DNA of 64,000 nucleotides from an uncultured bacterium (GCA_965541585.1 CBEUCH010000004.1:1-64000); one strand, 5' to 3'. Positions 7,937 to 48,463 are shown, counted from the first letter of the stretch. The notes: a model not told the origin generated them from the letters alone. Numbers and translations are program-made.

Positions 7937-8025
7937 CCGCGTCAACATTAGGATATATGAAAAGGTCGCTCGTGGAGTGTGTTGACAATAAGTTTCCTTG
8001 CCCGATTTATGGGAGGGCCAGGTCA
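7937..8025 (+). repeat. Dispersed repeat type A, copy 1 (IS3-like end fragment)
   Basis: CCGCGTCAACA..ATGAAAAGG..GCTCG..GGAGTGTGTTGACAATAAGTTTCCTTG.CCGATTT..CAGGTCA; similar to 18546 and 20884. Confidence 0.85.
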
Positions 8026-8097
8026 AGGTTGCATCAATTATGGGAGAAAATCTTTCTTTACCATCGTTGAATCATCCTTGGGATTCTCAGCTGATAC

Positions 8098-9381
8098 TTA
8101 GAAATCAAAACGAACCGATAAATAGACATTATCATTCTTGTCAAATTGCGCCAAGAAGGTTGTATTCTTCTCTCCACCAAAGATATTTGCGCCCAATGCA
8201 ACGTTGAAATTGTCAGAAAGCTTGTAAGACGTTTGTGGCTGGATTAAGTAGTCGTTATCCGTTTGCTCATAGAAAGTGAACAGGGATAGCCTCCATGTCT
8301 GATGTTTTAGCAATTGCTCCAGGCGCAAGGTAACAGTGTCACGATACTCTTTCTGGGCTGGAAATCCCGCTGGAAGAAACCTATTATAAACGGTGTAATT
8401 GCCCATGATTTCCCCGTAGTATTGGATGCCGACAGTGAAATCTTCCCAAAACTGTCGTTGATATCCCAATAGAAAGCGCACCTGCGAGTTTGGTATAGTG
8501 GGATCGATGCCATTTTCATCTTCGCTGGAAGAATAATATCCAGTTTCAAAACTCAGAATGCCCCTCAATGCGTTCCCCTGGGCGCTCAATCCATAGACAG
8601 CTAGTTCGGGATAGAAGGAGATCGCTGTGGCGGGAGCACCGAAGTCATCCGGCCTCATGCTCGGCGTTCCCCAGAAACCATTGTAAGCATAGATTGAGAT
8701 ATCGAAGTTCATAATCTTACGGTATAAGCGCCAGGCAAGTTCTGTATTATTATATGTGGCCTCAGGTTTCGTTTCCTCGCGGGACTGAACATCCTCGAAG
8801 GGATCGTAAATAAAGAAATTTCGGGAGCTGGGGACGATGTCCGGCTGGAAGAAAGGAATAATCAACAATTCCGTATTAACTGCCCTTGAGGAAAACCGAA
8901 CACGAAACCCGTCTGCCCCTATCTTGAGATACTCAAGAGGCCTACCCGAGAAGAACGACATCCAGTCTTTTGGGAAAACATCGTTAATGAAAAGCAGGTC
9001 GCCGACGCCCCAAGTTGCGATCTGGCGCCCGAGACGAAAATCAAAAGCACCCTCGGTGTAGTCAACATAAGCTTCACGCAGATCGATTTCGAATTCTCCG
9101 GTGATAGCGTCATGAAAGAAATCACCCTTGATCCGCGCTGAAGCTTCGATGTACTCTGACCAGGCGTAGATATCCAGCCGAAGCCGCTCTTCGGCGAGAA
9201 GGAAATCACTCCCTCCATTGCCGTCAGGCCGCAGACCAGTAGTCCGACCGGAGAAGTTTCCCAATAGAAACCCGTTGATTGCGACGTTCTTTTCGGCCCC
9301 GGCCGAGGCGACAGCTACAGATAATATCAAAGTAGTCAGAGCAAGCAATTCCACCCCTCTACTATTGATTGTCATCCTCAT
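8098..9381 (-). CDS. Outer-membrane beta-barrel protein (DUF1302-like)
   Basis: Signal peptide, LREAYVD..RLGRQIATWG motif, alternating beta strands, C-terminal VRFDF; last gene of the MMPL operon. Confidence 0.7.
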   Translation of the reverse strand: MRMTINSRGVELLALTTLILSVAVASAGAEKNVAINGFLLGNFSGRTTGLRPDGNGGSDFLLAEERLRLDIYAWSEYIEASARIKGDFFHDAITGEFEIDLREAYVDYTEGAFDFRLGRQIATWGVGDLLFINDVFPKDWMSFFSGRPLEYLKIGADGFRVRFSSRAVNTELLIIPFFQPDIVPSSRNFFIYDPFEDVQSREETKPEATYNNTELAWRLYRKIMNFDISIYAYNGFWGTPSMRPDDFGAPATAISFYPELAVYGLSAQGNALRGILSFETGYYSSSEDENGIDPTIPNSQVRFLLGYQRQFWEDFTVGIQYYGEIMGNYTVYNRFLPAGFPAQKEYRDTVTLRLEQLLKHQTWRLSLFTFYEQTDNDYLIQPQTSYKLSDNFNVALGANIFGGEKNTTFLAQFDKNDNVYLSVRFDF

Positions 9382-9424
9382 CTATCTCGGAGCCATGATT
9401 TCATTAACTTAAATTGCCTGAAAC

Positions 9425-10264
9425 TTAGCGGATCCAGGCACGCGGCGGGCGTCTCATGCGACGTTCGCTGAAGTCTTTGTCCTCCAGGCCCAGGTTGTAT
9501 ACGACCGACTCGTATATAACTTCCGTCCGGTGTCCGGTTTTAACATTTTTCATGGTGCGCTTTGTCACAGTAGTAATGGTCTTATCCCCACCGCCTTCAC
9601 CAACGGTAATTTCTTCGACTTTGTCAGCTGTGAAGACGCGGAAAAGTTCGTCCTGGGCATCGAAGTACTCTTCCCTTAATGGAAGGAGTGTCTCCTTTGC
9701 GATCCAGGAAAATCGCCTGACATAATCCACGGATGCCTTTGGAGTACTTTGTATCACATAGCAGTCATTTTCTCCAAGCTTTTCCTCACGAAGGAGCGTG
9801 TGCGTGTCTGACTCCAGGTCGCGACCTGAAACATCCTCGTAGGTGAAGTCCGATCCCACAAAGCTGGAGCGTTTGTCATCAGCCGCAATGCGGCGGATTA
9901 AGTCGATAGCCGGAATGAATATCCAGCGGTCATCCTCCCGGGCGGGATACTTCCAGACCATAAATGTCATCTGGCGGATGTCGCCGGGCTCGTGAAAATA
10001 CATGAAATATTTCTGGTTACTGTCCTTCGCTTCGTTTCTTCGCAGCATCGTCATAACTCGAATTCTTTTGCCGCCATTTTTGTCTATAAGTTCCATGGTA
10101 ACACTGGTTTTCATGTCGTTACCCTGATAATAGAACGCGCGCTGAGACTGCTCCATAATCTGGGTGGCGGTGAATTGTACATTCTCCGCGGATGGAGTTT
10201 GGCCGGAAGCCAATCCCCAGGACAGTAGAGCCCAATATGCAAGAGCAAAGGATAATCGTCTCAT
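9425..10264 (-). CDS. Outer-membrane lipoprotein-sorting (LolA-like) protein
   Basis: Signal peptide; DDRWIFIPA..RRIA..SSFVGSDFTYED signature. Confidence 0.85.
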   Translation of the reverse strand: MRRLSFALAYWALLSWGLASGQTPSAENVQFTATQIMEQSQRAFYYQGNDMKTSVTMELIDKNGGKRIRVMTMLRRNEAKDSNQKYFMYFHEPGDIRQMTFMVWKYPAREDDRWIFIPAIDLIRRIAADDKRSSFVGSDFTYEDVSGRDLESDTHTLLREEKLGENDCYVIQSTPKASVDYVRRFSWIAKETLLPLREEYFDAQDELFRVFTADKVEEITVGEGGGDKTITTVTKRTMKNVKTGHRTEVIYESVVYNLGLEDKDFSERRMRRPPRAWIR

Positions 10265-10491
10265 TAGACAACCCCTTTCTTGATAGCTTCTATTTCTTCT
10301 TCACAGCTTTTCAGATTGCACATTCTAAGTATCGATTTCATTGGGCACCAGTTCGAGAAGGCAGATTGCAGCAGATTAAAACCAACGATCGCGGTGAACA
10401 AGAGCCACCAGGGAGAATGATAGTGGGCGAGGGCAACGGAAATCAGCACGAAGCTTCCTGCCACGCCCCTAAGGGCTTTCTCCAATTTCAT
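10264..10491 (-). CDS. DUF2892 (YgaP-like) small membrane protein
   Basis: LRGVAGSFVL..WWLLFTAIVGFNLLQSAFSNWCPM; overlaps both neighbours. Confidence 0.85.
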   Translation of the reverse strand: MKLEKALRGVAGSFVLISVALAHYHSPWWLLFTAIVGFNLLQSAFSNWCPMKSILRMCNLKSCEEEIEAIKKGVV

Positions 10492-12812
10492 AATTCACCT
10501 CCTTTCAAAATGCGCGTCCCGGCAAAGCGCAACGCTGCCGGGAGTAAAAACAGCGTTGATAGTGTACTAAATATCATGAGAAGGGCAAAGAAAAAACCCA
10601 CAGTTACGTAAGGTGTCAGGGACGAGGCAAGCAGCGGTAGAAATCCCAGGGAAATCACGATGGCGTTACGCGCGATGGCGCGTCCGGGCTCGCCGAACAT
10701 ATAACGATTTGTTTCTTCCAGGCTTCCCGAGTTAGCATAATGCATCCGGAAACGCTGGAGGAAATGGATAGCAAAATCGATTCCCAGGCCCAGAGAAAGA
10801 GAGGAGCAAACTGCTATGGGCATATCGTAGTCTTTGCCTACCCACCCCACTAATCCATAGGTCAGCAATATGGCTATGGAGAGAGGTATCATTGAAAGAA
10901 CACCTAAGACCAAGGAACGGAACTGAATCAACATAAGGAGGAATACTACGGCGAAGCTTCCCAGGATCGCTTTCAGCATTCCGAAAACCATGAGGTCCTG
11001 CCACACCTTATTGATATATGTGAGACCCGACCAGCTTAACGTGATACCATCAGGCGGAGGATTAATATTCACGAAGCCAGCGAGCCGGTCTTCCACATCC
11101 TGCATCTGCTGGTTGTCGCCTCCCTTCATCTGCACCCAGATATTGGCCTGTTGTGATTTACGATCAAGGAAAATGTCAAGGTCGTTCGGGTCTCCTGAAG
11201 ATTGGAACAAGAAGAGGAATTGCCCCACAGCCTCCCTGGAATCCGGTACCCGATTGTATCTTTCATCATTGTCGTGTAAAACAAAGTTGATTCGCTTGAC
11301 GATGTCTGCGACCGAGGATGTCTTTCCTATCAGTGGATCATCTTCCAGATATGCTTGTACGCGGTCAAGATAGGAAACGACTTCCGGCTTTTTGATTATC
11401 TCCGGTTCATCTCCTTCTATCACCAGGTAGGCCATGTAGGTGCCGCCAAAAAGACGGTTCATGACGACATCCGCCACCCGCATGGGGTGTCCTTTTTTGA
11501 ACCATTTGACCGGGTTATCGTTTATCTGAATTTGCCGCACTCCGAGGATTCCCATAATAAGCGCCAATAGACCGAGGATAAGTACTACTCGGGCACGAGA
11601 AAAGGTGAACCGGGCAATTAGTTGCAGGAATCGGTCGATAATAGATGAGCGACGACTTTCTTTTTGCAGAAGAACTTTCTTCAGTTTTTCGTCGCTCATA
11701 AGGCTGATAACTGCAGGAACTACGGTCATAGAGAGGAACCAGGCAACCATAATGCCGAATGCTACAAAGAGTCCAAATACGCGCACCGGGGGGATGTTTG
11801 CCAACGCAAGTGAGGCAAACCCAATAGCGGAGGTCAGCGATGTATAAAACATGGGCCGATAAAGGGGGCCTTTGCATTCCAACATAGCCTGGCGCTTGTC
11901 CCTGATGATACGGTATCGATCGAAGAAAGCGCTCAACACATGCACATCGTCCAGGATAGCGATCGGCATAAGGAAAACGGGGATCATTGAGCTCATTATG
12001 TGAACTGTATTCCCGGTGCCAATCAAAAGTCCCATGGCCCAGATAACTGAAAACATAGCGGTCATGGCGACCGGCACCAAAAAACCAACGCTGCGGAAGA
12101 GCAAAAACACAAGTAGTAAAATAACCATGAAAGCCAGAGGTGCTACTAATGCCATCTGGAGGAACATCTGGTGGCCAAAGGTGTCTTCTGCGACAGGCAG
12201 ACCAGCCAGATGATAGGTTTGATTTGGAAGAAGTTCACGCTTTAAAATAGTCTCGATCTCGGCGGCGATTCGGTAGCTCATATCCTTCTGTTGAATCGGG
12301 ATGTAAAGGGCCAGAGCCTTACCATCGGCCGACGCGATCTTCTCATGTAAAAAAGGATTATCGGCAATGTCTCGCTGGAGTTGTTCGATGGCCTCCGGGG
12401 TTCGAGGAACATCTCTCATTACCGGGTGAATATCGAGAAATCCTCCCGAGGATTTCACATTATTTGTGGTGGTTATACTCACCACATCCTCGATAATCAC
12501 TCCCTTGATCTTAATGACTTCCGATATAATCCGTGCCACCCGTTCCAGCGATTCAGAACGGAAAATACCGTTCTCGTCGACGATCCCCACAACGATCAGG
12601 TCGTGGATACCAAATTCCTCTTTGACACGGTCATAAAGAACACGGTCGATCTGATCGGGCTCGAGCATATTTTCAGGATCGGTGTCGATTTTGATACGCC
12701 CGAACTGAAGACCCAGCAATACTGTAATTAGAATCGCCAACGCGATCACAGTTTTTGGACGATCCAGGGCGAATATAGTAAGTTTTTCAATGGGAAATCT
12801 TTTCATTGACAA
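10488..12812 (-). CDS. MMPL/RND-family transporter
   Basis: Duplicated 1+5 TM topology with two periplasmic loops; IAILDDVH and LGIDFAIH motifs. Confidence 0.92.
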   Translation of the reverse strand: MSMKRFPIEKLTIFALDRPKTVIALAILITVLLGLQFGRIKIDTDPENMLEPDQIDRVLYDRVKEEFGIHDLIVVGIVDENGIFRSESLERVARIISEVIKIKGVIIEDVVSITTTNNVKSSGGFLDIHPVMRDVPRTPEAIEQLQRDIADNPFLHEKIASADGKALALYIPIQQKDMSYRIAAEIETILKRELLPNQTYHLAGLPVAEDTFGHQMFLQMALVAPLAFMVILLLVFLLFRSVGFLVPVAMTAMFSVIWAMGLLIGTGNTVHIMSSMIPVFLMPIAILDDVHVLSAFFDRYRIIRDKRQAMLECKGPLYRPMFYTSLTSAIGFASLALANIPPVRVFGLFVAFGIMVAWFLSMTVVPAVISLMSDEKLKKVLLQKESRRSSIIDRFLQLIARFTFSRARVVLILGLLALIMGILGVRQIQINDNPVKWFKKGHPMRVADVVMNRLFGGTYMAYLVIEGDEPEIIKKPEVVSYLDRVQAYLEDDPLIGKTSSVADIVKRINFVLHDNDERYNRVPDSREAVGQFLFLFQSSGDPNDLDIFLDRKSQQANIWVQMKGGDNQQMQDVEDRLAGFVNINPPPDGITLSWSGLTYINKVWQDLMVFGMLKAILGSFAVVFLLMLIQFRSLVLGVLSMIPLSIAILLTYGLVGWVGKDYDMPIAVCSSLSLGLGIDFAIHFLQRFRMHYANSGSLEETNRYMFGEPGRAIARNAIVISLGFLPLLASSLTPYVTVGFFFALLMIFSTLSTLFLLPAALRFAGTRILKGGEL

Positions 12813-12914
12813 CCTTCGTTTTCCTCAACGGTTTGGGGAGTCTTGTTGTTGTTTCATTCAGCAGTTCACAGTATTGGCTTTATCACCCGACATGGCCGAT
12901 CGCACCATTGGGCA

Positions 12915-13067
12915 TGTCCCGCCCCCAATAGTTATACGACATTTTATGTAAGTCTTGCCATAGCAAAAGTCAAGTTTGTTTGAGGTTGGAGGGATTCAGG
13001 TGCGGGAGCCACATCCTGGGGCGCCGGGCAGCCTCGACAACAATAAGACAACAACGAGTTGTATATC
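12915..13067 (+). repeat. Dispersed repeat type B, copy 1 (IS3-like end + transposase tail)
   Basis: TGTCCCGCCCCCAATAG...GCCATAGCAAAAGTCAAGTTTG...GACAACAATAAGACAACAACGAG. Minus strand encodes APAPESLQPQTNLTFAMARLT*. Confidence 0.85.
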
Positions 13068-13209
13068 GTCGGCGAAGCCAGACGAGGATATCATTGAGCG
13101 ACATTGTCTTTAGTGCTGATTTTGAGTTGATTTATTGACAGCGGTCTCTTATTATTTTACCGGTTCTGTTAAAAAGGTTTTGACGACGTACACCGTGGAA
13201 AGGAAGCAA

Positions 13210-13641
13210 ATGGGATTAGATCTGAACACATTAAACAGGACTACGCACAATAAACTCGCGGGCGTCATTCGGATAATTATAGGCGGCATGTTTGTGATGA
13301 CCGGCATTATGAAGCTGGTAGTACCATCACTGGGTATTGCGTTTGCAGGGCAATTGCAATCGGCGAACATTCCGTTTCATGGGTTCAATATGTGGTTTGT
13401 TCCCAGCATGGAGATGTTCGTTGGAGTGCTTTTGTCCGCAGGACTGATGTCTCGCCTCGGGGCACTTGTGGTTATTGGTTTGATGGCTGTGGCGACGTAC
13501 GTCCATTTGGTTGTTGATGACCCCACCCTTTTTCCACTTCAGCCAGAACTGCCGATCGTTCCAATAGTGGTGATCGTCCTAAGTGTCTACTTATTGATCG
13601 TTGGCGGCGGTGCCTGGAGCAGAGACTTGCGGAATTCATAG
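13210..13641 (+). CDS. DoxX-family membrane protein
   Basis: RIIIGGMFVMTGIMK..EMFVGVLL..GLMSRLGA..GGGAWS; 4 TM segments. Confidence 0.85.
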   Translation: MGLDLNTLNRTTHNKLAGVIRIIIGGMFVMTGIMKLVVPSLGIAFAGQLQSANIPFHGFNMWFVPSMEMFVGVLLSAGLMSRLGALVVIGLMAVATYVHLVVDDPTLFPLQPELPIVPIVVIVLSVYLLIVGGGAWSRDLRNS

Positions 13642-13645
13642 AACA

Positions 13646-13696
13646 CGTAAGCTTCCCTGCACCAGGGATCTCACGCTTGATCACGAACTTCGGCAT
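13646..13696 (-). pseudogene. 5' stub of a DUF4242-like gene
   Basis: AAAGGAGA RBS + MPKFVIKREIPGAGKLT, typical of DUF4242 N-termini; recognisable similarity ends next to the doxX stop. Confidence 0.55.
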
Positions 13697-13852
13697 TCTG
13701 TTTCTCCTTTTCTTTGAAAGCTTTGGTTATTAATGGAACTCCACCAACAGATCAAGAGGCTACAAATATAACCACCCCAACGAATGCAGTCAATAATAAT
13801 ATAGACTACAAAAGTCCACAATAGACTGTCAGCTTGTGTGACCAAGTTGTGT

Positions 13853-14043
13853 TGTCCTGCCCCCAATAGTTGTACCACATTTTAAGTTAGTCCTGCCATA
13901 GCGAAAGTCAAGTTTGATTGAAGTTGGATGGTTTCAGGTGGGGGAGATGTATCCTGGGCGCCGAGTAGCCGCGACAACAACGAGTGGTATATCTGTGGTG
14001 CTTTCTGGTGTTCTCTGGTGTCGAAAAGTGTAGGTCGGATTCG
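13853..14043 (+). repeat. Dispersed repeat type B, copy 2
   Basis: TGTCCTGCCCCCAATAGTTGTACCACATTTTAAGTTAGTCCTGCCATAGCGAAAGTCAAG...GCCGCGACAACAACGAGTGGTATATCTGTGG... Confidence 0.88.
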
Positions 14044-14214
14044 GTGTAATTCCTTGCGAGCCGGCGCAATAGACCTTCTTTCAAGGACTTACGGCGATTC
14101 ATAGGAGACACGATTTGGGCTGCGGTAACAATACGGTAACATTGTGAAGGAAAAAAAGACTGCTCCTGTTTCCCCAAACTATTAAAATTTTCGCAAAAAA
14201 ATCCCATTTTATAC

Positions 14215-14242
14215 TTGACAAGATAAATTTTAAAAGTATATT
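14215..14242 (+). promoter_or_regulatory. Sigma70-type promoter of trmB-like gene
   Basis: TTGACA-N16-TATATT, followed by a GTAATT-N6-AATTAC palindrome (14252-14269). Confidence 0.6.
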
Positions 14243-14260
14243 ATTGCAGTAGTAATTATA

Positions 14261-15160
14261 ATGAATTACAACAACACTACAGGAGTTAGTGTGGACAATG
14301 CCATCACTATCAGAAGGCTTAGAGAATTAGGCTTAACCGACCATGAATCAAGAAGTTATTTGTCTCTATTGAAAAAAGATGTTTTGACAGTTTCTGAAAT
14401 CTCAAGGTTAGCGGGAATTCCTCGTGCCAACACTTATGAGGCCCTCGAGAAATTATTGGATAAAGGGTTATGTATATCGAAACCCGGGAAAGTAAAAAAA
14501 TATTCTGCTGCCGGTCCATCAAGTCTTGAAGAGAAAGTTCTTCCGGAGTTTGACAATAAAGCAGAAATAGAGATGCAAGCTTTATTGACTAAAAGGAAAG
14601 CTATCCATGAGAATGTTGGAATTTTGGTAAAGGAATTGACTCCTCTTTATAGAAATAGTCGCAATGAAGACACCCCCCTCGATTACATCGAGATCATGAA
14701 AAACCCGCATCAGATTCATAAAAGGTTCATAGAGTTGGTGGGCAAAGCTAAAGAGGAGATACTTGCTTTCGTAAGACCTCCTTATTCCGGCCCCAGGAAA
14801 AAGCTTGAAGAGCAAAACGAGCAGCAGACAACTTTGCTCCGTGGGGGGTTAATTATTAAGGCCATTTATGAGATTCCCCGAGACAAGGAAGAAATGGAAT
14901 GGCGGTATAAAATTATAGACAGAATGAGCAAGCGTGGGGAAGAGTCGCGCGTTTCTAAAAGCCTACCGATGAAAATGTTTGTCTTTGATGAGAAAATCGC
15001 CATGTATGCGTTAGAGGATCCTATTTCCGGGGAGACATTTCTTACCATGCAGGTTGTCGAGCACCGCGCTTTGGCCAAAAGCCTTAAGATGCTTTTTTAT
15101 CATATATGGGAGCAGGCCGAAGATTACCATATTCTGAAGGATTTATTGAAAAAAATGTAA
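14261..15160 (+). CDS. TrmB-family transcriptional regulator
   Basis: LGLTDHESRSYLSLL..EISRLAGIPRANTYEALEKLLDKGL wHTH; C-terminal AKEEI..MKMFVFD effector domain. Confidence 0.9.
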   Translation: MNYNNTTGVSVDNAITIRRLRELGLTDHESRSYLSLLKKDVLTVSEISRLAGIPRANTYEALEKLLDKGLCISKPGKVKKYSAAGPSSLEEKVLPEFDNKAEIEMQALLTKRKAIHENVGILVKELTPLYRNSRNEDTPLDYIEIMKNPHQIHKRFIELVGKAKEEILAFVRPPYSGPRKKLEEQNEQQTTLLRGGLIIKAIYEIPRDKEEMEWRYKIIDRMSKRGEESRVSKSLPMKMFVFDEKIAMYALEDPISGETFLTMQVVEHRALAKSLKMLFYHIWEQAEDYHILKDLLKKM

Positions 15161-15169
15161 TTAGGAATT

Positions 15170-15249
15170 AAAAAAATGAACCGCCAAGAGTGAAGTCTTG
15201 ACGGCCCGGCAAATGGGTCCCTTATGCTACGACGCTTAAAAGAAACCCG
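15170..15249 (-). ncRNA. Candidate ~80-nt small RNA
   Basis: Minus-strand TTGACA-N17-CAAGAT (15283-15255), a 9-bp hairpin, then a 12-bp hairpin + ATTTTTTT terminator. Confidence 0.35.
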
Positions 15250-15428
15250 GCAACATCTTGAGTATCTTCTATAGGGATGTCAAGAAGAAATTAAAATAAA
15301 CTCACATGTTAAGATGGAAAATCAGGCAAGGCATATGCGGTAAATTACGTATGGAAGTGTTAATTAAAGACACATAACTTAAAAAATGTAAAGAAATTTA
15401 ACTCCAAAGCATTAATAGAGGAGAGGCG

Positions 15429-18488: not shown

Positions 18489-18512
18489 CATCACCGAAAG
18501 AATTTTTATTCA

Positions 18513-21553: not shown

Positions 21554-21560
21554 AGGCCTA

Positions 21561-38586: not shown

Positions 38587-38596
38587 CTTTGCCCTT

Positions 38597-39205: not shown

Positions 39206-39335
39206 ATCATCTCCTCATCCGTTTCCACATTTAGAATTAATCCAAGGCATAATCCGGGGGAGTTTCCGCACCGGTAACATCGGCTTGCCTGCCGAATATC
39301 CAGAATCTTTAACCCTCTACGGGCTGGTTTTGTTC

Positions 39336-40782: not shown

Positions 40783-40827
40783 TGTACCTCCTTAAACGTT
40801 TAATGCTAAAACACTTCCGATTGGTTA

Positions 40828-40843
40828 AGCAACAAACATGCCA
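40828..40843 (-). promoter_or_regulatory. Sigma54 (-24/-12) promoter
   Basis: TGGCATGTTTGTTGCT matches TGGCAC-N5-TTGC(A/T), 45 nt upstream of the cyc2-like ATG. Confidence 0.85.
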
Positions 40844-40913
40844 TTTACAGCGCCTGATAACTGCTTGGATAATCGGCAGTTATGGGACGGGGAAAATACC
40901 CGGCTTGTTGAAT

Positions 40914-41013
40914 TGTAACATATCATTACATTCACAATGGTGGTAGTCGTTTTAAGGCATTAGGATTCAAAAGGATAGAAATTATTTCAAGTAATTTGTA
41001 ATGAATCGTTACA
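40914..41013. promoter_or_regulatory. Two upstream activator palindromes TGTAA-N7-TTACA
   Basis: TGTAAcatatcaTTACA (40914-40930) and TGTAAtgaatcgTTACA (40997-41013), upstream of the sigma54 promoter. Confidence 0.7.
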
Positions 41014-41014
41014 G

Positions 41015-42379
41015 TTACAGATCTTTGATATCGTATTGGTCGATCTTCTTATAAAGCCGCGGGCGAGAAATTCCTAATATCTCTGCCGCCTTAGATTTAT
41101 TGCCGTTGGATTCTTTGAGAGCCTTGATTATCAGATCTTTTTCAGCTTCTGAGAATGAGGGCACCGATGTCGCTTGTTTTCCACCATGATCAGGTGCGCT
41201 GGTTATGTTTGCAGGCAGGTCTTTGGAAGTGATAATCTCCGCAGCTCTCTCCGCAAACAGACGCTCGACCAGGTTTTCCAATTCTCTGATATTACCGGGC
41301 CAGCGGTATTTTGCAAGCATGTTCAGGGCATTGTCATCAAAAGCCTTAATTTTGAAATCATGGGTCTGGTTGCCTTTATCCAGGAAGTACTGCAATAAAC
41401 CGACTATTTCATCGCTTATTTTCCTCAATGGAGGGACATCGATAGGAATAACGTTCAATCTATGATAGAGATCCTCTCTCAGCAACTTCCGGGAAAGCGC
41501 ATTTTGCAGATCAGTATTAGTGGCCGCAATAAACCGAACGTCAATCTTTAATTCTTCGACAGAGCCGACGGGCCTTATGGATCTTTCCTGGATTGAGCGC
41601 AGAAGCTTGGCCTGCGTACCGGGTTGCATCTCCACCAGCTCATCCAGAAACAGTGTTCCGCCGTCGGCGGACATCATTAAGCCCTCATGATCCTGGCCGG
41701 CGCCGGTGAATGCGCCTTTCCTGTAGCCGAACAATTCACTTTCTATCAATTCGCGGGACAGGGCGCTGCAGTTTATGGCAACAAACGGCCCTGAAGTCCT
41801 ACGGCTGTTTTTATGTATAGCCGTGGCGAAGAGTTCTTTGCCGGTGCCGCTTTCCCCGGAGATAAATACAGAACAATCACATCGGGCCGCCGATGTGATT
41901 CTGTCATAAACCTTCATCATAAGGGCATTGCTGAATACATACCCATCCAACTGAAGATCATGAGTTACTATTTTTTTTAACTGTTGAACCTCATTCTGGA
42001 GTTTCCAGATCTTATAGACCTGTTGAATTGAATTGAGCAATTCACTTTTATTGAAAGGTTTGGTGATATAATCGGTGGCGTTATCCTTGATTGCCTTTAC
42101 GGCCGATTCAATTGAGCCGTAGCCGGTCATTATGATGACCTCGATCGCAGGGTTAATCGCTTTGACCTCCTGCAATAATTGCGTACCGTCCTTGCCGGGC
42201 ATTTTCAGGTCGGCAACAACCAGGTTAATGTCATTTTTGGAGCTTATTGTTTCAAGGGCTTCGTCTGCAGATCCCAGAGCCTTAACGTGATAACCCCGGC
42301 CGGCAATTACCCTGGCACAGGTTTCGGCATAATCGATATCATCATCGACCACCAGTATTTTGAAATCACTTTCACTCAT
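41015..42379 (-). CDS. Sigma54-dependent response regulator
   Basis: VVDDD/DLKMP receiver, GESGTGKE, GAFTGA, WPGNIREL, Fis HTH. Confidence 0.95.
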   Translation of the reverse strand: MSESDFKILVVDDDIDYAETCARVIAGRGYHVKALGSADEALETISSKNDINLVVADLKMPGKDGTQLLQEVKAINPAIEVIIMTGYGSIESAVKAIKDNATDYITKPFNKSELLNSIQQVYKIWKLQNEVQQLKKIVTHDLQLDGYVFSNALMMKVYDRITSAARCDCSVFISGESGTGKELFATAIHKNSRRTSGPFVAINCSALSRELIESELFGYRKGAFTGAGQDHEGLMMSADGGTLFLDELVEMQPGTQAKLLRSIQERSIRPVGSVEELKIDVRFIAATNTDLQNALSRKLLREDLYHRLNVIPIDVPPLRKISDEIVGLLQYFLDKGNQTHDFKIKAFDDNALNMLAKYRWPGNIRELENLVERLFAERAAEIITSKDLPANITSAPDHGGKQATSVPSFSEAEKDLIIKALKESNGNKSKAAEILGISRPRLYKKIDQYDIKDL

Positions 42380-43527
42380 CAGGCCACCGGAAAGTATAGC
42401 TTAAATGATGCCCCTTCTCCCATATTGCTTTCTACTTCGATCCTGCCATCATGTTCAAGGATAATTTTCTTGCATAGAGCCAGCCCCAAGCCGGTACCTT
42501 CCGGCCCCGCCTTTGTAGTAAAAAATGGATCAAAAACTTTATCAATATGATCAGCCGGAATTCCCGGACCATTATCCGTAAATGTGACGGCAACCTGGTT
42601 CAACAAAAGATCTTTGCCAATTTGAATATCTATTTTACCATTTTTACCTATTACATGGATTGAATTCGAAAAAAGATTGAAGAACAGTTGCTCAATCTGA
42701 TTTTCATTACAGAAAATCTCCGTATCCTTTGTTTTTATATCAATGTTCAATGCAACGTTGTACTTTTTCAATTCGATTTCGACAAGACTTTTAACTTTAT
42801 TTATAATTGATTCGATATTTTGTTTTTTCCTGACAGGTTCCTCTTTCTTTACATAGGCGAGCAATTGCTTTACAACATTCGAGCAATGCTCTGCCTGGCG
42901 TTTGATCATGTCGACCTCTCCGGTCATAGACTGCGGGATATCTGTATCATTCAAAATATCGGCAGAAAGAATGATGGAGCCAAGCGGGGTGTTCAGCTCA
43001 TGGGCTATCCCGGCGGCGATCTGGCCGATATTTGTCAGCCTTTCGATTCGTCCCGGATCAGCCCTTAAATGGCTTTGCTCTCGTGTTTGTCTAAAAATAT
43101 TTATCAGGCCGATAACCTCGTTTCTGTTGGCAATAATCGGAATGACCGTTAACGCCATCTCGCGGCTATCCTCACCGGCAACAACTTTCGTTTCGAAATC
43201 AAAAACAGGCTTTTTCTCACGGGTGACATATTTTAATATGCTTTTATAGTCGTATCTGCATTGTTCAGCTATAGCATTTTCAAATGACGTTATCGGTTTT
43301 TTTGTACTGTTTGATTTAAACGATTTTTCAAACAAATCAGACGTTGATTCTATGGTCCCGGCGGGATCCGTTATCGCTGCCAATGCATCATAATGTTTAA
43401 GAATATGCTCCGTTTTCAGCTTTTCTTTTATATACTCCGATTGGCGACGGCGCGAATATTGCAGGAAAAGAAATATTGCAATAGACATGGCCAGAATCAG
43501 AAAGATGATTATTGGATAAACGTTCAT
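42379..43527 (-). CDS. Sensor histidine kinase (TM - PAS-like - HisKA - HATPase)
   Basis: AHELNTP, NLFSN, DNGPG, PFFTTK, GTGLGL; 1-nt overlap with the regulator. Confidence 0.93.
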   Translation of the reverse strand: MNVYPIIIFLILAMSIAIFLFLQYSRRRQSEYIKEKLKTEHILKHYDALAAITDPAGTIESTSDLFEKSFKSNSTKKPITSFENAIAEQCRYDYKSILKYVTREKKPVFDFETKVVAGEDSREMALTVIPIIANRNEVIGLINIFRQTREQSHLRADPGRIERLTNIGQIAAGIAHELNTPLGSIILSADILNDTDIPQSMTGEVDMIKRQAEHCSNVVKQLLAYVKKEEPVRKKQNIESIINKVKSLVEIELKKYNVALNIDIKTKDTEIFCNENQIEQLFFNLFSNSIHVIGKNGKIDIQIGKDLLLNQVAVTFTDNGPGIPADHIDKVFDPFFTTKAGPEGTGLGLALCKKIILEHDGRIEVESNMGEGASFKLYFPVA

Positions 43528-43773
43528 CCTGCCTATTTCTCCCTTAATCCGCTAGAAACTCAATAAAATCAAATGAAATAGTGTACCTCCGGCGCCGAGA
43601 TCATCACGTAATCAACGCTGCAGGCGGCCTGGATTGGCTCATAAAACCAATCGTGCCGGAGATACCTGCAACTGAAAGCAATCCACAGCATTTTGTAATG
43701 TTAATGATAAAGTCCCGGCATCACTTAAACAAATGTTTTTTAGGCTAATCCGGTCTGGCGAAAATGTCATCGA

Positions 43774-44082
43774 ATGTCTTCGAAAAACCGCCTGATCAAC
43801 AAGCAACGGATGGCCAGCTTCCGGGCAGTCGAAACCGGCTTCTCATTGATTCGTGCAACCCGTAAAGGACTATCAGCTACATTTCACTATCATGGACATA
43901 TTCTATCTACCCCTGACTTTTCCACCACTGACGGAGAATCTATGCTATCTTACGTCTCAACTCACGGCATTAGAACAGTCTACCCCGTGATTGGTGATCT
44001 TTTTGCCTGGCTATGTGCAATGGGAGTTGCAGTACTCATAGGATGGGTATTCTTTGCTCGGTCGCTGCGCCCAGATTATTGA
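43774..44082 (+). pseudogene. C-terminal fragment of an Lnt/CN-hydrolase-like gene
   Basis: MASFRAVETGFSLIRAT..GLS..RTVYPVIGDLFAWLC resembles the apolipoprotein N-acyltransferase C-terminus; catalytic N-terminal part absent. Confidence 0.6.
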
Positions 44083-44335
44083 GGAACGCAAACCAGATGA
44101 ACCTGAATATCAGGAGAAAGTCCATCTCTTACTTCAAACGCCTTTTTGGCACGGTAGGTTCTGACGGACTACAATCATGGCCTATTTAATATTTTACAAT
44201 GGCAGCGAATTGATTCTAAATAGATTCTAGGGGAACCAGAAGAATTTTAATATTTTGATTTCTGCGGGGAAATAATTTCCAGCCTCCATTACACAAATAA
44301 ATGTACACGAAACCGACTCCATCTCTGGACAATAC

Positions 44336-44707
44336 TTACGAGTAACAGCCTTGCTTTATTTTACTTTTCAGAATGTCTTGTCTAGATACTATACCGATAA
44401 CTGCGTTATCCCGAGTAACTACTATACGTTTAATAGAGTAATCTAACAATAAGGCTGAAATTTGATCTACCGACGTATCTTCACTAACAGTTATCACCTC
44501 TTTGGTCATAATCTCAGTTACCGAAGCGATCAATTCGTTTTTTAGTAATAGATCGCGCTCCGTTACTATACCCACTAACTTACCTTCTTCGTTTATTATC
44601 GGAGTTCCACTAATTTGATGTTCAGTCATTATCTTGGCAACATCCGATATACCCGCATCTGCTTTAGCAGTTATAACATTCGTATTCATAATATCCTTTG
44701 CAAGCAT
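44336..44707 (-). CDS. Tandem CBS-domain protein
   Basis: AKDIMNTNVIT..LVGIVTERDLL..EIMTKEVIT..IGIVSRQDIL; GGAGG RBS. Confidence 0.9.
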   Translation of the reverse strand: MLAKDIMNTNVITAKADAGISDVAKIMTEHQISGTPIINEEGKLVGIVTERDLLLKNELIASVTEIMTKEVITVSEDTSVDQISALLLDYSIKRIVVTRDNAVIGIVSRQDILKSKIKQGCYS

Positions 44708-44746
44708 TTGTCCCTCCTTTTTGTGAGTCATTATTTAATATTTTAT

Positions 44747-45244
44747 TTATACCATTATATCAGCACCTTTCCAGTCAGATTGAAGAATTTTGCTATCATT
44801 CGCAGGATCTATCTTGACAATTAGTTTATTATCTCGTGTAATTACATAAATCCAAAAACCTACAACGAAAGGCAATTCTCCTATCTCCTCTTTAATCTCT
44901 TTAAGTCTGAATTTTGGAACAATAACCTCAACATGAGAATAGTCAAGGTTCGCTATATTATTTTTAATCTCCTTTACATGCATCGATGTATATACTACTT
45001 CATAAACAGCAGCTGCCTCACGCTGTCCAATATCCCCTACGACAATATCCGGTATCTTCTGACCAGGTTCAACCTTCCAGGCACCTTTCTCCCAATTTTT
45101 GTGGTAAGCAAAGATATAAGCTGGCTCAAATTCTTCTAGTAACATCTTGGTCATAATAAGAACCACGAAATCATGAATTATTATATGATATGGATCAATC
45201 CGATCAGCACTTATTTTCTTCCGCATGATATTAATATCAATCAT
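44747..45244 (-). CDS. Hypothetical protein (AT-rich)
   Basis: 165-aa ORF with AAGGAG RBS; IPDIVV..VYEV weakly PD-(D/E)xK-like. Confidence 0.55.
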   Translation of the reverse strand: MIDINIMRKKISADRIDPYHIIIHDFVVLIMTKMLLEEFEPAYIFAYHKNWEKGAWKVEPGQKIPDIVVGDIGQREAAAVYEVVYTSMHVKEIKNNIANLDYSHVEVIVPKFRLKEIKEEIGELPFVVGFWIYVITRDNKLIVKIDPANDSKILQSDWKGADIMV

Positions 45245-45379
45245 ATTTTAAACAACTCTCCTTTTATCTATTTTATCTGTCTTTTATTTCAAATCCGCCT
45301 GATCACTGTAAAGAAATATTAATGTCATTCTATTATGATATCGTCATCCTAAAGATGAAATTCAGCGTTTTATTTATCA

Positions 45380-45453
45380 TGTCCTGCCCCCGTTTATTGT
45401 ATGACGTTGTAAGTTAGTCCTGCCACAGCGAAAGTAAAGCTTGTTTGAGGTTG
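45380..45453 (+). repeat. Dispersed repeat type B, copy 4 (truncated)
   Basis: TGTCCTGCCCCC..AAGTTAGTCCTGCCACAGCGAAAGTAAAGCTTGTTTGAGGTTG. Confidence 0.85.
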
Positions 45454-45503
45454 TTGAACTTCCAATCTCTAACCCAAAAATGGAGGGTTTTACGGGAGGC
45501 AGA

Positions 45504-46754
45504 TCAAGACTGCAGGTGATGAAGGCGCATCGGTTGGAATCTTCCATAAGTCAACGAGCGCCAGAGCCACTCGAAGGGTCCGAACCGGAAATAGCTCAGC
45601 CATATCGGTGATACGATCAGCTGAATTATCCATATGCCGAAGACAAGCAAGATCTGGCCGTAACGGGGTATTTCACCGAAGAGACCAAAGCCATGCCCGT
45701 TGAAAATAGTAGTGCAGATTAATGTCTGAAGAAGATAATTGGTCAGGGCCATTCGTCCCACCGCCGAAAGAGGTTTGATTATATTCTTGAAACGGGCGGT
45801 TTTACAAATTAACATTATCACTCCGATGTAGGCCATACCGATAAACAGCGATCCCCAATAGTTGAATTGTATGCCGTAGAAGAAGGAAAAGTAAATCGAC
45901 CAATCCGCCCGGAAATTACGTACGATGCCATAGCTAACAACAGGCAAGCCAACGACGAGCCCAAAAGCTGCCATGGACGCGTAAAACTTTCTTGAGCGTT
46001 CTCCGGTGAGCACTCCAAACTTGTAGAGTGCCATACCGATTAACATCAGTCCCCCGGCACGCCATCCCCCCCAAATAGCAAAGACGAATGTTTGCATGAA
46101 TATAGCGCTGGAAGCGCGATGCCCTAACTGGCCCACCCACCCGGCTTGCTGGGCTCCGATTTCAATTTGAATCATCTCGGATGTAGGTTTCCAGAACTCC
46201 ATCATGCCGTTGATGGCTTCAGGCGGCCAGAATTTCATGGACCAGCCAAAGAAAAGATAAATAGCGGTGGAGACTGAGATCGAAAGCAGGCCGAATATGA
46301 GAAGCCTCCCGGGTCTGACATTGCGTAACAGATAGACAACAAGCCCGCAGCAACCGTAAGCAACGAGGATATCCCCGGACCATAACAGGTAAGCGTGCGC
46401 CAGTCCGATAAGAATCAATATTATTATTCGACGATAGTATATTCTTGTTACGCTGCCACCACTGGCTTCTATGCGCGAGACTATCATGATCACACCGCCG
46501 CCAAAGAGAATGGAAAAGATGGTCATGAATTTCTGATCGGCGAAGATATGGCTCAAAATCCACACCCAGCCGTTGATCCCGGTTAAGTCACCATATGTTG
46601 TGGGGTTGAAATAAGCGGCCTGAATCATCGAGAAATACTGGATGTTCATTATCAGTATGCCAAGCATTGCAAAACCGCGCAGGGCATCTACGGCGATGAT
46701 GCGCTCGGGCGGGGCAATTGGAATTGCATCAGTGGGACGTTCGGTTTGAGTCAT
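45504..46754 (-). CDS. DUF418 (YeiB-like) membrane protein
   Basis: DALRGFAMLGILIMNI, KFMTIFSILFG, GRMALTNYLLQT, GPFEWLWRSLTY. Confidence 0.93.
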   Translation of the reverse strand: MTQTERPTDAIPIAPPERIIAVDALRGFAMLGILIMNIQYFSMIQAAYFNPTTYGDLTGINGWVWILSHIFADQKFMTIFSILFGGGVIMIVSRIEASGGSVTRIYYRRIIILILIGLAHAYLLWSGDILVAYGCCGLVVYLLRNVRPGRLLIFGLLSISVSTAIYLFFGWSMKFWPPEAINGMMEFWKPTSEMIQIEIGAQQAGWVGQLGHRASSAIFMQTFVFAIWGGWRAGGLMLIGMALYKFGVLTGERSRKFYASMAAFGLVVGLPVVSYGIVRNFRADWSIYFSFFYGIQFNYWGSLFIGMAYIGVIMLICKTARFKNIIKPLSAVGRMALTNYLLQTLICTTIFNGHGFGLFGEIPRYGQILLVFGIWIIQLIVSPIWLSYFRFGPFEWLWRSLTYGRFQPMRLHHLQS

Positions 46755-46939
46755 AATCCGCGGGATGATACTCCAAAGAACGGTATCGTGAATGATTTAG
46801 TGTTCCTCAATTTGCTCATCTTATTTCCGCAAAGTGCAACTTAGATTATATTATGGACTTCCGACGACCGTCAAGCCGGGTTTTCTCAACGGCTGGCGAG
46901 TTTGTCTCTAATGGCCTGGCCGTCCTGTGTCATTTAACA

Positions 46940-47016
46940 GTCCTGGCCTATAGTACCTCATTTAGGGTAGTCCTGCCATAGCTAAAATCAAGTTTGTTTG
47001 TAGCTGCATGGCTTCA
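46940..47016 (+). repeat. Dispersed repeat type B, copy 5 (degenerate)
   Basis: GTCCTG..TAGTCCTGCCATAGCTAAAATCAAGTTTGTTTG. Confidence 0.7.
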
Positions 47017-47097
47017 TGCGCAGGGCAAATTCAAAACGATAAGGGTTAAAGAGAATATGGATATCTGTGGCAGAACATTTAAACGGTTTTCAGAGAT

Positions 47098-48270
47098 TCA
47101 GCGGGTATACAGGGAATTATCAGAAACTTCTGCTGCCTGCTTTTTCCTAGGCACCTTAAGCGAAAAAATCATATCAATAAACACTATAACCGCTCCGGCC
47201 ATAAAAGTGGCCTTATAGCCAAAGATGCTCCAGGCTATTCCCCCTGTGACAGGAATGATTACGGCAGTAATATGATTCGCCGACATACCAAAAGATAAAC
47301 AGTTCGTAAGATCCTCGGCCGGGCACATTTTGCTGAGAAACGATTTCAATGCGATGGATGATCCGAATAAAACATTATCAATAACATAGAACGCTATTAA
47401 TACCGGCAGATAATTTATCAATGCGTAACCGGAAAAGATAAAAACCAATAAGAAAGAACATCCTGCCAATAATGCGCGCTCCCCCAGACGGTCGCTCATC
47501 TGACCCATAAACCGGTTGGTGAAAATTGTAATGAGGTTACTGACCAGCATAATGATCGATATATATGTTATGCTCAGATTGTGGTTTTTCACGAGGAGGA
47601 AGATCGCAAATGTGGTGAAGATATGCCGACGGCAGCCCCTGAGAAAAGCCAGAGTATAGTAGAGCCAGTATTTTTTATAAATCCTTATCTTGCGCTTTTC
47701 CGATCTTCCTCTGTTAGCCGGCAGGGCTACGGTCAAATATAATCCTATCCCCAGAACCGATGCCCCTATCAAATAAAAGGTTTCCCTGAAGCTCAGGAAT
47801 AATGTCAAAAACAACACCAGACCTGCGCCCGTCAACCCCGCCATTGATTCATACGATCTCAGTCTTCCCTGAGCTTTTCCTAATTCCTTTGAATCTGTAA
47901 GAAGCAATAACTGCGATGAATTGGTAGGTTCAAAGTAATGAAAGCCAAATGACATCAATACTGTCGCCAGGCCAAGAGCTATTATTGATGGCGCCAAACC
48001 GCAGAGAACCAGCCCCGATCCGATTATAACAATCGAAACGGACGCTATTTTCGATTCTGTAAGATAAAGCGCCAGTGCCCCAACACCGAAGGCCAATAAC
48101 CCTGGGATCTCCCTTACAGCTTGAATCAGACCGACATCTGTCGGAGAAGCATCAAAAACCTCCACTGCAAAATTATTAAACATTATTCGCCACGTATAAA
48201 AACCGATCCACATAATAACTGATGAAAAGGTTATGGTGTAGACTGAGACTTTCTTAAATCGCAAAGACAT
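47098..48270 (-). CDS. MFS transporter
   Basis: About 12 TM; REIPGLLAF, GCRRHIF, GQMSDRLGER motifs. Confidence 0.88.
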   Translation of the reverse strand: MSLRFKKVSVYTITFSSVIMWIGFYTWRIMFNNFAVEVFDASPTDVGLIQAVREIPGLLAFGVGALALYLTESKIASVSIVIIGSGLVLCGLAPSIIALGLATVLMSFGFHYFEPTNSSQLLLLTDSKELGKAQGRLRSYESMAGLTGAGLVLFLTLFLSFRETFYLIGASVLGIGLYLTVALPANRGRSEKRKIRIYKKYWLYYTLAFLRGCRRHIFTTFAIFLLVKNHNLSITYISIIMLVSNLITIFTNRFMGQMSDRLGERALLAGCSFLLVFIFSGYALINYLPVLIAFYVIDNVLFGSSIALKSFLSKMCPAEDLTNCLSFGMSANHITAVIIPVTGGIAWSIFGYKATFMAGAVIVFIDMIFSLKVPRKKQAAEVSDNSLYTR

Positions 48271-48463
48271 GCTCCAACTGTTGTACCACAATTTAGGTTA
48301 GTATGGCAATCTTAAGGTCAAGTTTGTTTGGATTTGGAGGACTTCAGGCAGAAGGCAGTATCCTCGTTAGCTGTGTAGCCGCGTCAACAATACGTCAACA
48401 ACGAGTGGTATATCTGTGGCGTTTTCTCGTATTCCCTGGTGTCGAATAGTGTAGTTCGGATTC
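48270..48463 (+). repeat. Dispersed repeat type B, copy 6
   Basis: GTTGTACCACAATTTAGGTTAGT..GTCAAGTTTGTTTG..GCCGCGTCAACAATACGTCAACAACGAGTGGTATATCTGTGG..GGTGTCGAATAGTGTAGTTCGGATTC; colinear with copy 2. Confidence 0.85.

Follow-up and report, generated by a model that had tools for sequence, protein, structure and literature searches.

A probable stack of integrase-less cassettes behind a tRNA-Met gene, with insertion sequence ends joined to its attachment arms, in an uncultured bacterium

Introduction

Integrons and the clusters of attC sites lacking integron-integrases (CALINs) are directional arrays of short cassettes in which each cassette carries a conserved recombination site and the recombinase lies outside the cassettes. 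In mobile insertion cassettes (MICs), the cargo is held between the inner sides of two insertion sequence (IS) ends. Cis-mobilizable elements (CIMEs) of the ICESt1/ICESt3 type have lost their integration genes, keep attL and attR and accrete in tandem at the end of a target gene (PMC5704250). Likewise, the tycheposons of Prochlorococcus are tyrosine-recombinase elements that use few tRNA genes, at which newcomers displace older elements inward, and the resulting islands contain scattered partial tRNAs and degraded elements together with niche-gene cargo (bioRxiv 10.1101/2020.12.28.424599). Stacks of integrase-less cassettes anchored at a tRNA gene are thus a known route to flexible genome islands. 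Here we analyze a stretch of 64,000 nucleotides from an uncultured bacterium (GCA_965541585.1 CBEUCH010000004.1:1-64000, referred to below as the window), in which nine repeats resembling the ends of IS3-family elements separate unrelated gene modules. We conclude that the region from 7.9 kb of the window to at least 74 kb of the contig is probably a stack of this kind, accreted by site-specific recombination behind one tRNA-Met gene, with the fusion of IS ends to its attachment (att) arms as an unusual twist.

Comparison with these systems reveals similarities and differences. The locus shares with integrons and CALINs a directional array, a conserved site per cassette and a recombinase that is not within the cassettes, but its site is about 290 nt long and includes a tRNA 3' half, as opposed to an imperfect palindrome of 60-140 nt, and it is anchored at a tRNA instead of attI. 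Unlike in those arrays, moreover, the cassettes point both ways and reach up to 24 kb, and the linked recombinases are phage-type integrases beside tRNA genes. As in MICs, transposase-less IS ends stand beside passenger genes; in contrast to MICs, the cargo is mostly outside the tips and an attachment unit is found between the inner sides. The array resembles CIMEs in its integrase-less stacked units and in having a cognate integrase at the same site in relatives. It differs from them in its tRNA-Met site within a Zixibacteria-type lineage, in its many cassettes with one to three genes, in the conservation of the ~290-nt unit across two families, in the IS ends on its arms and in that no conjugation genes were seen here. 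A tRNA-anchored island, partial tRNAs and degraded joints are shared with the tycheposon islands, whereas long arms with paired 11-mers and fused IS ends are not described in the sections of that work on which we draw.

Data sets and searches

The source assembly (G000) comprises 3.52 Mb in 40 contigs, with a G+C content of about 49%, and is fragmented at repeats; the window is the first 64 kb of its contig C4. The source is an uncultured environmental (sediment) bacterium, and one genome of the same family carries the label Candidatus Zixiibacteriota. A Pfam scan of the proteins encoded in the window identified Por_Secre_tail sorting domains, an IPTL-CTERM motif, sigma-54 activators and multihaem cytochromes. 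The comparison set consisted of 24 genomes of the order, including two congeners (G001 and G002), a different genus (G007) and the order's second family (G016). Repeat copies were counted genome-wide with nhmmer profiles, and contigs from four metagenome studies were placed on positions 6-23 kb of the window at a likeness of at least 90%. The metagenome runs contain at most 0.24 of the sampled words of a 10-kb query, and window parts without contig cover are uninformative.

The attachment unit and its integrase

A preliminary description of the window, based on its sequence alone, had distinguished six repeats of type B and three of type A, and had suggested, as one of two options, that an inner motif shared by both is the internal site at which an IS-derived miniature inverted-repeat transposable element (MITE) opens. 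This motif is instead a pair of tandem 11-mers that forms the outer edge of an attachment-site unit, and is not IS sequence, because the unit occurs without B and without any trace of a transposase in its arm; in other genera, this separate tRNA-Met unit is found without any IS sequence. Over about 290 nt, the unit begins with two 11-mers (GTCAACAATAC GACAACAAC) and continues with a ~145-nt arm and with tRNA-Met positions 26-74; a hairpin spacer, ~45 nt long, and a second pair of 11-mers complete it. By eye it is non-palindromic and built around the tRNA half. Integrases that recombine within the anticodon loop typically leave a match running from the anticodon stem to the 3' terminus of the tRNA, and the 11-mers would be arm-type binding sites.

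Ten units taken from G007, G008, G013, G016 and G017, which span four genera, start at CCGCGTCAACAATACGACAACA (the tenth is cut short at its 5' side). Their alignment comprises the 11-mer pair, three phased CTGGTG repeats, a semi-conserved stretch, the tRNA half, the hairpin spacer and, in most of them, the second 11-mer pair, with a sharp left edge preceded by unrelated sequence, in some cases a gene terminator. A search with the G002 copy (query 144-339) located the unit, from the 11-mers through the tRNA half and without B, in 12 of the 24 genomes. The long B copies of G000:C18, G002:C40 and G001:C56 run on, by way of another conserved segment, into the tRNA-Met 3' half (positions 26-74), and intact halves are present at joints in these three contigs, at three joints of G007:C108, and in G013 and G008. 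True tRNA-Met genes, confirmed with ARAGORN in G013, G008 and G017, precede the units by 6.5 kb in G013 and by 27 and 34 kb in G008, which are complete genomes, and by 44 kb in G017. The intervening cargo of G013 and G008 includes TIR/SLATT-like genes, an RND efflux pump, an MFS transporter with MarR, and ankyrin-repeat and T9SS proteins, and none of the 29 open reading frames (ORFs) scanned across these island regions (a few of them flanking the islands) has an integrase or transposase domain. The 6.5-kb island of G013 (C1:1528207-1534721, locus L114) encodes a 1066-aa TIR-domain protein and a SLATT-like protein, a cargo of anti-phage appearance.

In relatives, the conserved junction unit is linked to an integrase. 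The order in G016:C7 and G017:C8 is tRNA-Met gene, spacer, two 11-mers (CGGTAACAnnn), terminator and a convergent tyrosine integrase gene, which in G017:C8 contains one in-frame TAG. The same order is seen in G006:C69, with more diverged repeats and just a C-terminal integrase fragment. Positions 14120-14166 of the window, ahead of a cassette encoding a TrmB-like regulator, retain 11-mers of the G016/G017 type and a remnant of the terminator. Since the motif is the edge of a tRNA-Met attachment unit, since such units bracket integrase-less blocks, and since relatives carry an integrase at this site, we read the window from 7.9 kb onward as a cassette stack, and the suggestion in the preliminary description that the repeats are recombination scars of repeated cassette accretion is essentially right.

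The process that we envisage is as follows. Tyrosine integrases would cross over in the 3' half of tRNA-Met and add cassettes serially, and every joint between cassettes would be, or would once have been, a unit of about 290 nt. In this genus, pieces of a non-autonomous IS3-family element with IS407-type ends are fused to the outer sides of the arms in a single polarity: the right end (B, 116 nt) stands ahead of the P-arm 11-mers, and an arm fragment is followed by the left end (the final ~40 nt of A). Most joints of the window would subsequently have lost the tRNA half through deletions, in part between directly repeated 11-mers, leaving scars of the forms B, B plus arm, and 11-mers plus A. 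Recombination would presumably still be catalyzed in trans.

Several observations weigh against this reading. Where the unit begins on the left, at its 11-mer motif, the edge is more abrupt than a mere fading of conservation predicts, so that crossing-over may occur at the motif itself. The window holds no intact tRNA-Met half besides the gene itself, and just one remnant (14093-14103), so the array is reconstructed here from decayed remnants and from intact units on C18 and in relatives. No integrase was found beside tRNA-Met in the G000 assembly, the two full-length non-Xer integrases of which lie beside a tRNA-Ser(gga) fragment (C18) and beside tRNA-Leu(taa) (C15). With respect to the IS ends, it is the inner side and not the tip that faces the att arm, which simple insertion does not explain, and none of five complete MITEs has matching flanks in the form of a 4-bp target duplication. 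Finally, the genomes of one order are non-independent samples, and each of the metagenome joints reported below derives from single contigs with short sides of 20-41 nt, for which DNA of relatives is a possible source.

Other recombination systems were also considered. Tn7-like ends, Xer/dif sites, IS91-type rolling-circle ends and CRISPR-guided homing spacers were set aside by anatomy alone, with no search aimed at them, because the 11-mers are direct and lack a 6-bp centre, homology extends 45 nt past the tRNA, and integrase genes are present at the site.

The use of related arms does not seem to be restricted to tRNA-Met. Two tRNA-Leu(taa) 3' halves of 56-58 nt, 90-100% identical, are found at G000:C3:4049-4201 and C3:6707-6858, and about 80 nt upstream of each there is an exact match of 17-18 nt to P-arm positions 23-40 (window 13994-14011, within the phased repeats). 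In G016:C58, an A-type arm piece is continued by a long arm, downstream of which lies a tRNA-Ser(gct)-like half. Related att arms therefore seem to serve several tRNAs, judging from these sequence matches. Exact copies of 25-28 nt of tRNA 5' ends were also observed a few hundred nt from their genes, at C6:95537-95923 (tRNA-Asp), C5:213767-214240 (tRNA-Gly(tcc)) and C6:210664-210688 (tRNA-Asn), and may be scars of elements that entered tRNA genes from the 5' side. With its architecture defined (paired 11-mers on both arms and a tRNA half) and conserved across two families, the long attachment unit lends itself to recombination tests with synthetic substrates.

Insertion sequence ends

Nine repeats in two types are present where the preliminary description had placed them, all on the plus strand. 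In a repeat search of the window, B was recovered as three families, with four copies at 106 nt, five at 64 nt and six at 35 nt, and A as one family with three copies at 78 nt; the start positions are listed in Table 1. Only the last two B coordinates needed revision, as these copies have decayed tips and begin about 6 nt earlier (46934 and 48264, as opposed to 46940 and 48270). By itself, the 12-mer TGTCCTGCCCCC with which B starts is at chance level (5 matches with up to 2 mismatches against 4.07 expected, and 39 of 100 shuffles reach 5). The inner motif is far above chance (5 matches against 0.09 expected, and 0 of 100 shuffles), as are the long B family (64-106 nt) and the A family. Genome-wide, the G000 assembly contains 28 B-type and 9 A-type copies on 13 contigs. 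Their truncation points are non-random: B copies break off at the tip of the inverted repeat, at about position 95 and at position 116, where the motif lies, and seven of the nine A copies start at model position 1-2.

The preliminary description had further stated that each type keeps one orientation and that the copies fall at the borders between gene modules; both statements were borne out, all copies lying on a single strand on each of the eight contigs that carry at least two. As to whether the copies might be scattered in both orientations, with random truncation and without cargo polymorphism, we found one strand, fixed break points and polymorphic cargo. These data bear directly on the view that the repeats reflect ordinary decay, that is, that they are relics of many independent IS or MITE insertions which were tolerated between genes and for this reason mark module borders. 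The copies are only 66-90% alike and hence old, five simple MITEs exist, and IS remnants are common in genomic islands, all of which would fit. We nevertheless hold this view to be very improbable, since the single strand is also that of the anchoring tRNA, a fixed fusion between B and the 11-mers recurs in two families of the order (see below), and most A copies begin at the same base.

The two repeat types correspond to the two ends of an IS3-family element of IS407 type (we take IS407 group to be the name of an ISfinder subgroup). B is its right end, comprising the inverted repeat and a decayed stretch of the final ~35 orfB codons, and the matching left end makes up the terminal ~40 nt of A, as DNA and peptide match an IS of G007 and intact relatives. 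The OrfB encoded in G007:C228 is an IS3-family transposase (NCBIfam NF033516, 255.5 bits, cut-off 160) that terminates in ..GYRPPAPEAFKLTKDLTRMAVGLT followed by a stop codon just inside the IS end TGACCTGCCTCCGGTTATTGTACCAC... The second B copy (B2) is 67% identical to the right end of this IS over 128 columns, a value not reached by any of 500 shuffles. On the minus strand, B reads ..PPPETIQLQSNLTFAMAGLT followed by a stop, and the resemblance of this peptide to the tail of an IS3/IS407-group transposase, proposed in the preliminary description, is corroborated by the DNA alignment to IS right ends and by the tail-peptide match in a five-sequence search (43-45% over 20-21 residues of the G007 tail, E 0.002-0.004, and 42% over 31 residues of L074, E 4e-4).

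Among 11 related loci examined, a simple end-finding script gave no convincing inverted repeats for 6, and only the other 5 were used. These are intact relatives from other phyla; they measure 1223-1270 bp, carry TGACCTGCCCCC ends and have an orfA that is out of frame with orfB. B2 is 83% identical over 41 nt to the right ends of L043 and L074 (0 of 500 shuffles each), and the reverse complement of the third A copy (A3) matches the left ends of L043 (72% over 39 nt, 0 of 500 shuffles) and L059 (89% over 18 nt). The start of B is, furthermore, the exact complement of the end of A3 (12 of 12 positions). With a profile made from the OrfB C-terminus in 79 relatives, the B pieces reached 6.2 bits, no better than shuffles at 6.7 bits, and consequently the case for B rests on DNA identity and the tail peptide. 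The same profile was applied to the P arm (its parts here termed C and ext), which short collinear tblastn pieces had suggested to be a decayed transposase gene; this candidate was rejected, none of the 15 arm units scoring above shuffles. The sequence ATGAAAAGG in A was likewise discarded as a start of orfA, as positions 1-50 of A exist as an arm piece without an IS end in G016 and G002.

IS407A has been reported to have the ends TGACCTGCCCCCT...AGGGGGCAGGTCA and 4-bp target repeats (PMC2877748, Table 2). The elements described above resemble IS407-type members of the IS3 family in their TG(A/T)CCTGCCCCC tips, in having relatives of about 1.25 kb with orfA and orfB in different frames, in a transposase gene that extends into the right inverted repeat and in the 4-bp spacer of one head-to-tail joint. 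They are unlike them in that the window has only ends and one MITE, without target duplications, the inner sides being fused to the att unit and co-oriented with the tRNA.

Of the 28 B copies, five are followed within 260 nt by a left end with up to 6 mismatches (reached by 6 of 3000 background windows) and thus form complete MITEs of 81-136 bp, at C10:124353, C12:2127, C22:5979, C22:42643 and the fourth B copy (B4) of the window. The remaining 23 either stand alone as right ends or are joined to att arms. The third B copy (B3) was rejected as a full MITE, its putative left end (21686-21701) having 9 mismatches, which is background. Target duplications are also lacking for the pairings B2/A2 and B1/A3. 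In two solo copies (C6:61595 and C14:75643), no clean empty site could be identified, synteny in G001 and G002 breaking before the repeat.

As the preliminary description had stated, the window contains no transposase gene, none of 44 scanned ORFs having a transposase or integrase domain at the thresholds applied. In the entire assembly the rve domain occurs at a single locus, one IS3-type transposase on contig C21, and no transposase of the matching type was found in G000, the C21 element being 41% identical to the G007 type and having different ends. Nor was the G007 type found in other genomes of the order: 3 of 24 genomes have a match at E<=1e-40, corresponding to G007 itself and to C21-type IS of 41-43% identity. 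The C21 element (C21:19235-20476, locus L001) is the only intact IS of G000, an IS3-family member of 1242 bp with TGTTCTGCTCCCC ends, the OrfB of which is 41% identical to the G007 type. Its right tip adjoins a B copy at position 33 of the latter, seemingly in place of that copy's own inverted repeat, and a copy of the element in G002:C138, 92.6% identical, lies about 350 nt from the end of the G002 match to A1 (about A position 49).

Fusion of the ends to the arms

B is joined to the 11-mers at one fixed point (..GGGTAG directly followed by CCGCG..) in G000, G001, G002 and G016, that is, in two families. The A-type arm piece without an IS end (A positions 1-50) is present in ten G016 copies, nine behind unrelated sequence and one behind B, and in others of G002. 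In both fusions, the inner side of the IS end is directed toward the arm and the tip toward the cargo. Polarity also follows the tRNA: on all six contigs that carry both (C4, C10, C15, C18, C21 and C22), the copies are on the strand of a tRNA-Met, -Ser or -Leu gene or 3' fragment. Fragments of the tRNA-Ser(gga) 3' end occur at C22:5716, at C18:38537 (next to a 388-aa integrase) and twice on C21, and the tRNA-Ser(gga) gene is located 3 kb upstream of the C10 copies. It is most likely that the IS ends are carried passively as parts of cassette arms.

One proposal for the origin of the fusion, which we consider unlikely, is that the attachment site is itself portable. An IS-derived MITE would hold a full att unit (right end, P arm, tRNA half, P' arm, left end), an IS407-type transposase acting in trans might plant such docking sites beside arbitrary genes, and two copies flanking a gene would then allow the integrase to excise a circle that docks at tRNA-Met. 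By an alternative route, a single dispersed MITE or B copy could recombine homologously with a B-bearing arm, and either route would give cassettes of the form P'-left end, cargo, right end-P. In agreement with this, a 392-bp element of G001:C56 begins with the right-end tip, holds the P arm and a tRNA-Met half and ends in GGGGGCAGTCA, and cassette 1 of the window is exactly as predicted, lying between the tips of A1 and B1. The B tip, in addition, adjoins many sequences, both in the genome and at the metagenome loose ends at 13852/13853 (X1, X5 and X7), for which transposase action is the best explanation. A head-to-tail joint is also found at C22:5893-5979, where CTTT separates the left tip of a MITE from another right-end tip, a 4-bp distance between tips that is expected of IS407-type elements. 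On the other hand, there is one complete example only, the ends of which pair poorly (10 of 13, with 125 of 500 shuffles as good), and junctions in other genera and the TrmB cassette function without IS ends. B and the end of A are present at joints independently of each other, neither target duplications nor empty sites were found among the copies studied, and the matching transposase type is not in G000.

The weld between IS end and arm, with its fixed polarity, hints at a linkage of new cargo to the docking site and, if true, would address the open question of where cassettes originate. A portable attachment site, if true, would be a two-enzyme route for the birth of new cassettes, a step that is unexplained for integron-like arrays. 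A full-text literature search, by title and start of the abstract, returned no paper on the fusion of IS ends to attachment sites, and a motif search returned IS407A ends only, which is thin evidence that the fusion is unpublished.

Cassette polymorphism and joints

The cassettes are polymorphic among relatives, a comparison that the preliminary description had called for; the evidence is of static polymorphism only. The TrmB/IPTL cassette (cassette 3) is 94% identical in G001, where it lies directly behind tRNA-Met and neighbouring core DNA is 82% identical. In G007, a complete junction unit stands on either side of it, and identity is 91% and 84.5%. It thus takes three different stack positions in three genomes. 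Cassette 1, which has contig cover from four metagenome runs at 90-99% identity, is absent in G001 from the interval that separates tRNA-Met and the TrmB cassette. After one and the same terminator, the 11-mers lead into the P arm in G007 and into A in the window, a difference that we read as a deletion between directly repeated 11-mers. The G002:C138 match to the tRNA, the spacer and A1 stops at window position 7985, at about A position 49.

The TrmB cassette also bears on the proposal that a MITE opens at the inner motif, so that passengers lie between B on the left and A on the right as in a mobile insertion cassette moved by the IS transposase. B2 (13853) and A2 (18631) do flank two genes with their tips outward, and the unsplit form B-motif-A, which the preliminary description had suggested looking for, is present in G002:C235 and in three metagenome contigs of X1. 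In G007, however, the same two genes are bounded by plain att junctions without IS ends, and the homology between the window and G007 (14192-18567) falls within the limits of the att-arm motifs, not of the IS tips. Furthermore, a whole P arm and a P' remnant come after B2 and thereby assign it to the joint ahead of the cassette, no target duplication flanks the pair B2 and A2, and the order B...A around genes is seen in one pair of the nine copies, the arrangements A1/cargo/B1 and A3/cargo/B3 being the opposite. With its sole B...A pair holding a cassette that has the same limits but no IS ends in G007, the proposal is unsupported, and we regard it as very improbable.

Metagenome contigs provide further joints. 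An undeleted joint between the arm and the tRNA half (14084 to 7842) is represented by 2 contigs in X6 and a loose end in X7, and a 1107-nt contig of X1 links the tRNA-Met 3' end to the P' remnant ahead of TrmB. In these contigs, the B tip (13852/13853) and the motif (20883) are each preceded by many differing sequences. An apparent joint of 7898 to 18547 was rejected as a deletion, being a mapping ambiguity between A1 and A2.

The more distal parts of the window have few counterparts. At E<=1e-30, the segment 21.7-41.7 kb has no DNA match in G001, G002 or G007 except for 190 nt. The segment 40-64 kb matches G001 and G002 only in B-repeat copies, in histidine-kinase matches of 65-66% (~54.8-56.4 kb) and in one porin gene, 90% identical in G001; in a search of 40000-56000 at E<=1e-20, the kinase match is at 54808-55919, outside the 23.7-kb multi-gene block. 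The porin gene, of the alginate-export type (56638-57952), matches G001:C238 over a segment that begins at a distance of 12 nt from a B copy; beside the gene in the window, none was detectable. Upstream of the tRNA, positions 2169-6105, with a 177-aa ORF and an 865-aa cohesin/dockerin protein with a T9SS tail, are absent from the otherwise collinear G001:C9, and this region is therefore variable as well.

Features of the window

The features of the window are listed in Table 1. At gathering thresholds, Rfam identified tRNA only. Several features had escaped the preliminary description, namely the tRNA-Met gene 46 nt ahead of A1, a third module after B at 13972-14042 and 48393-48463, the decayed junction behind B2, the extension of B4 to a complete MITE, the third-module remnant of B5 and, beyond the window, a further decayed B-plus-arm copy at contig position 74024-74230. 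The decayed junction is composed of an anticodon-loop remnant (14093-14103), a spacer remnant (14104-14119), the 11-mers GGTAACAATAC GGTAACATTGT (14120-14146) and an integrase-terminator remnant (14147-14166), and this joint has lost about 75 nt, comprising the hairpin and the greater part of the tRNA half. A2 and the P arm that follows the same gene in G007 share their left boundary.

Table 1. Coordinates of the features discussed, in window positions. IRL and IRR, left and right inverted repeats; cassette and arm assignments follow the reading favoured in the text.
Feature	Position	Strand	Evidence and remarks
tRNA-Met (CAT) gene, putative array anchor (attB side)	7817..7891	+	ARAGORN, Rfam; with the upstream gene, 80-82% in G001 and G002
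P' spacer, hairpin and GGGATTTATAGAAGACA	7892..7936	+	Alignment; also after tRNA-Met 3' halves in other junctions and before the G016 integrase
A1	7937..8025	+	Arm part 7937-7986 (two 11-mers and ~25 nt), IRL 7987-8025, tip 8025
Cassette 1: 427-aa protein of unknown family, LolA-like, MMPL/RND transporter	8026..12914	-	Pfam; between the outer tips of A1 and B1
B1, IS right end, IRR tip at 12915, decayed transposase tail on the minus strand	12915..13031	+	Repeats, nhmmer
Two 11-mers GACAACAATAA GACAACAACGA and truncated P-arm start	13032..13075	+	
Cassette 2: DoxX-family gene	13076..13852	+	Pfam
B2, IS right end	13853..13968	+	Identity to G007, L043 and L074 ends; tail peptide
P arm of att site: 11-mers, phased CTGGTG repeats, rest (C plus ext)	13969..14092	+	
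Decayed junction rest	14093..14166	+	Alignment to G007 and to G016/G017 tRNA-Met/integrase intergenic regions
Cassette 3: TrmB-like regulator and 1019-aa IPTL-CTERM protein	14183..18545	+	Comparison with G001 and G007
A2: 11-mers and arm part (18546-18596), then IS left end	18546..18631	+	
Cassette 4: LVIVD-repeat protein	18632..20883	-	Pfam; 45-nt repeat at 20825-20870
A3: motif and arm part, IS left end terminating in GGGGGCAGGACA	20884..20971	+	L043 left-end match
Cassette 5: GNAT acetyltransferase	20972..21560	+	Pfam
B3, IS right end	21561..21654	+	Repeats, nhmmer
23.7-kb multi-gene block: proteases, NB-ARC/TPR, cytochromes, Rieske/cytochrome b, two-component system	21655..45379	.	Pfam
B4, complete 127-bp MITE (TGTCCTGCCCCC ... 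GGGAGGCAGATCA)	45380..45506	+	6 mismatches to left-end consensus; 6/3000 background windows as good
Single-gene cassette: DUF418	45507..46933	-	Pfam
B5, IS right end with decayed tip, and P-arm remnant ATGGATATCTGTGGCAG (47057-47073)	46934..47073	+	
Single-gene cassette: MFS transporter	47074..48263	-	Pfam
B6, right end to 48378, 11-mers 48379-48405, first P-arm part to 48463	48264..48463	+	

Two further repeats of the window deserve mention. A repeat of 45-52 nt (ATTGTAACCCGTCAGAGTCTACCGTGCCAAA...) is present at 20825-20870, directly ahead of the A3 11-mers, and inverted at 44128-44179; the repeat recurs ahead of an A copy on C15, in the vicinity of B copies on C10 and C24, and in G002:C40. 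The other, of 162 nt, has two copies that are 82% alike (39337-39498 and 40593-40754), with a 90-nt core shared with 32106-32195 (70%). It lies within three neighbouring minus-strand ORFs without a Pfam match, which look paralogous and not mobile.

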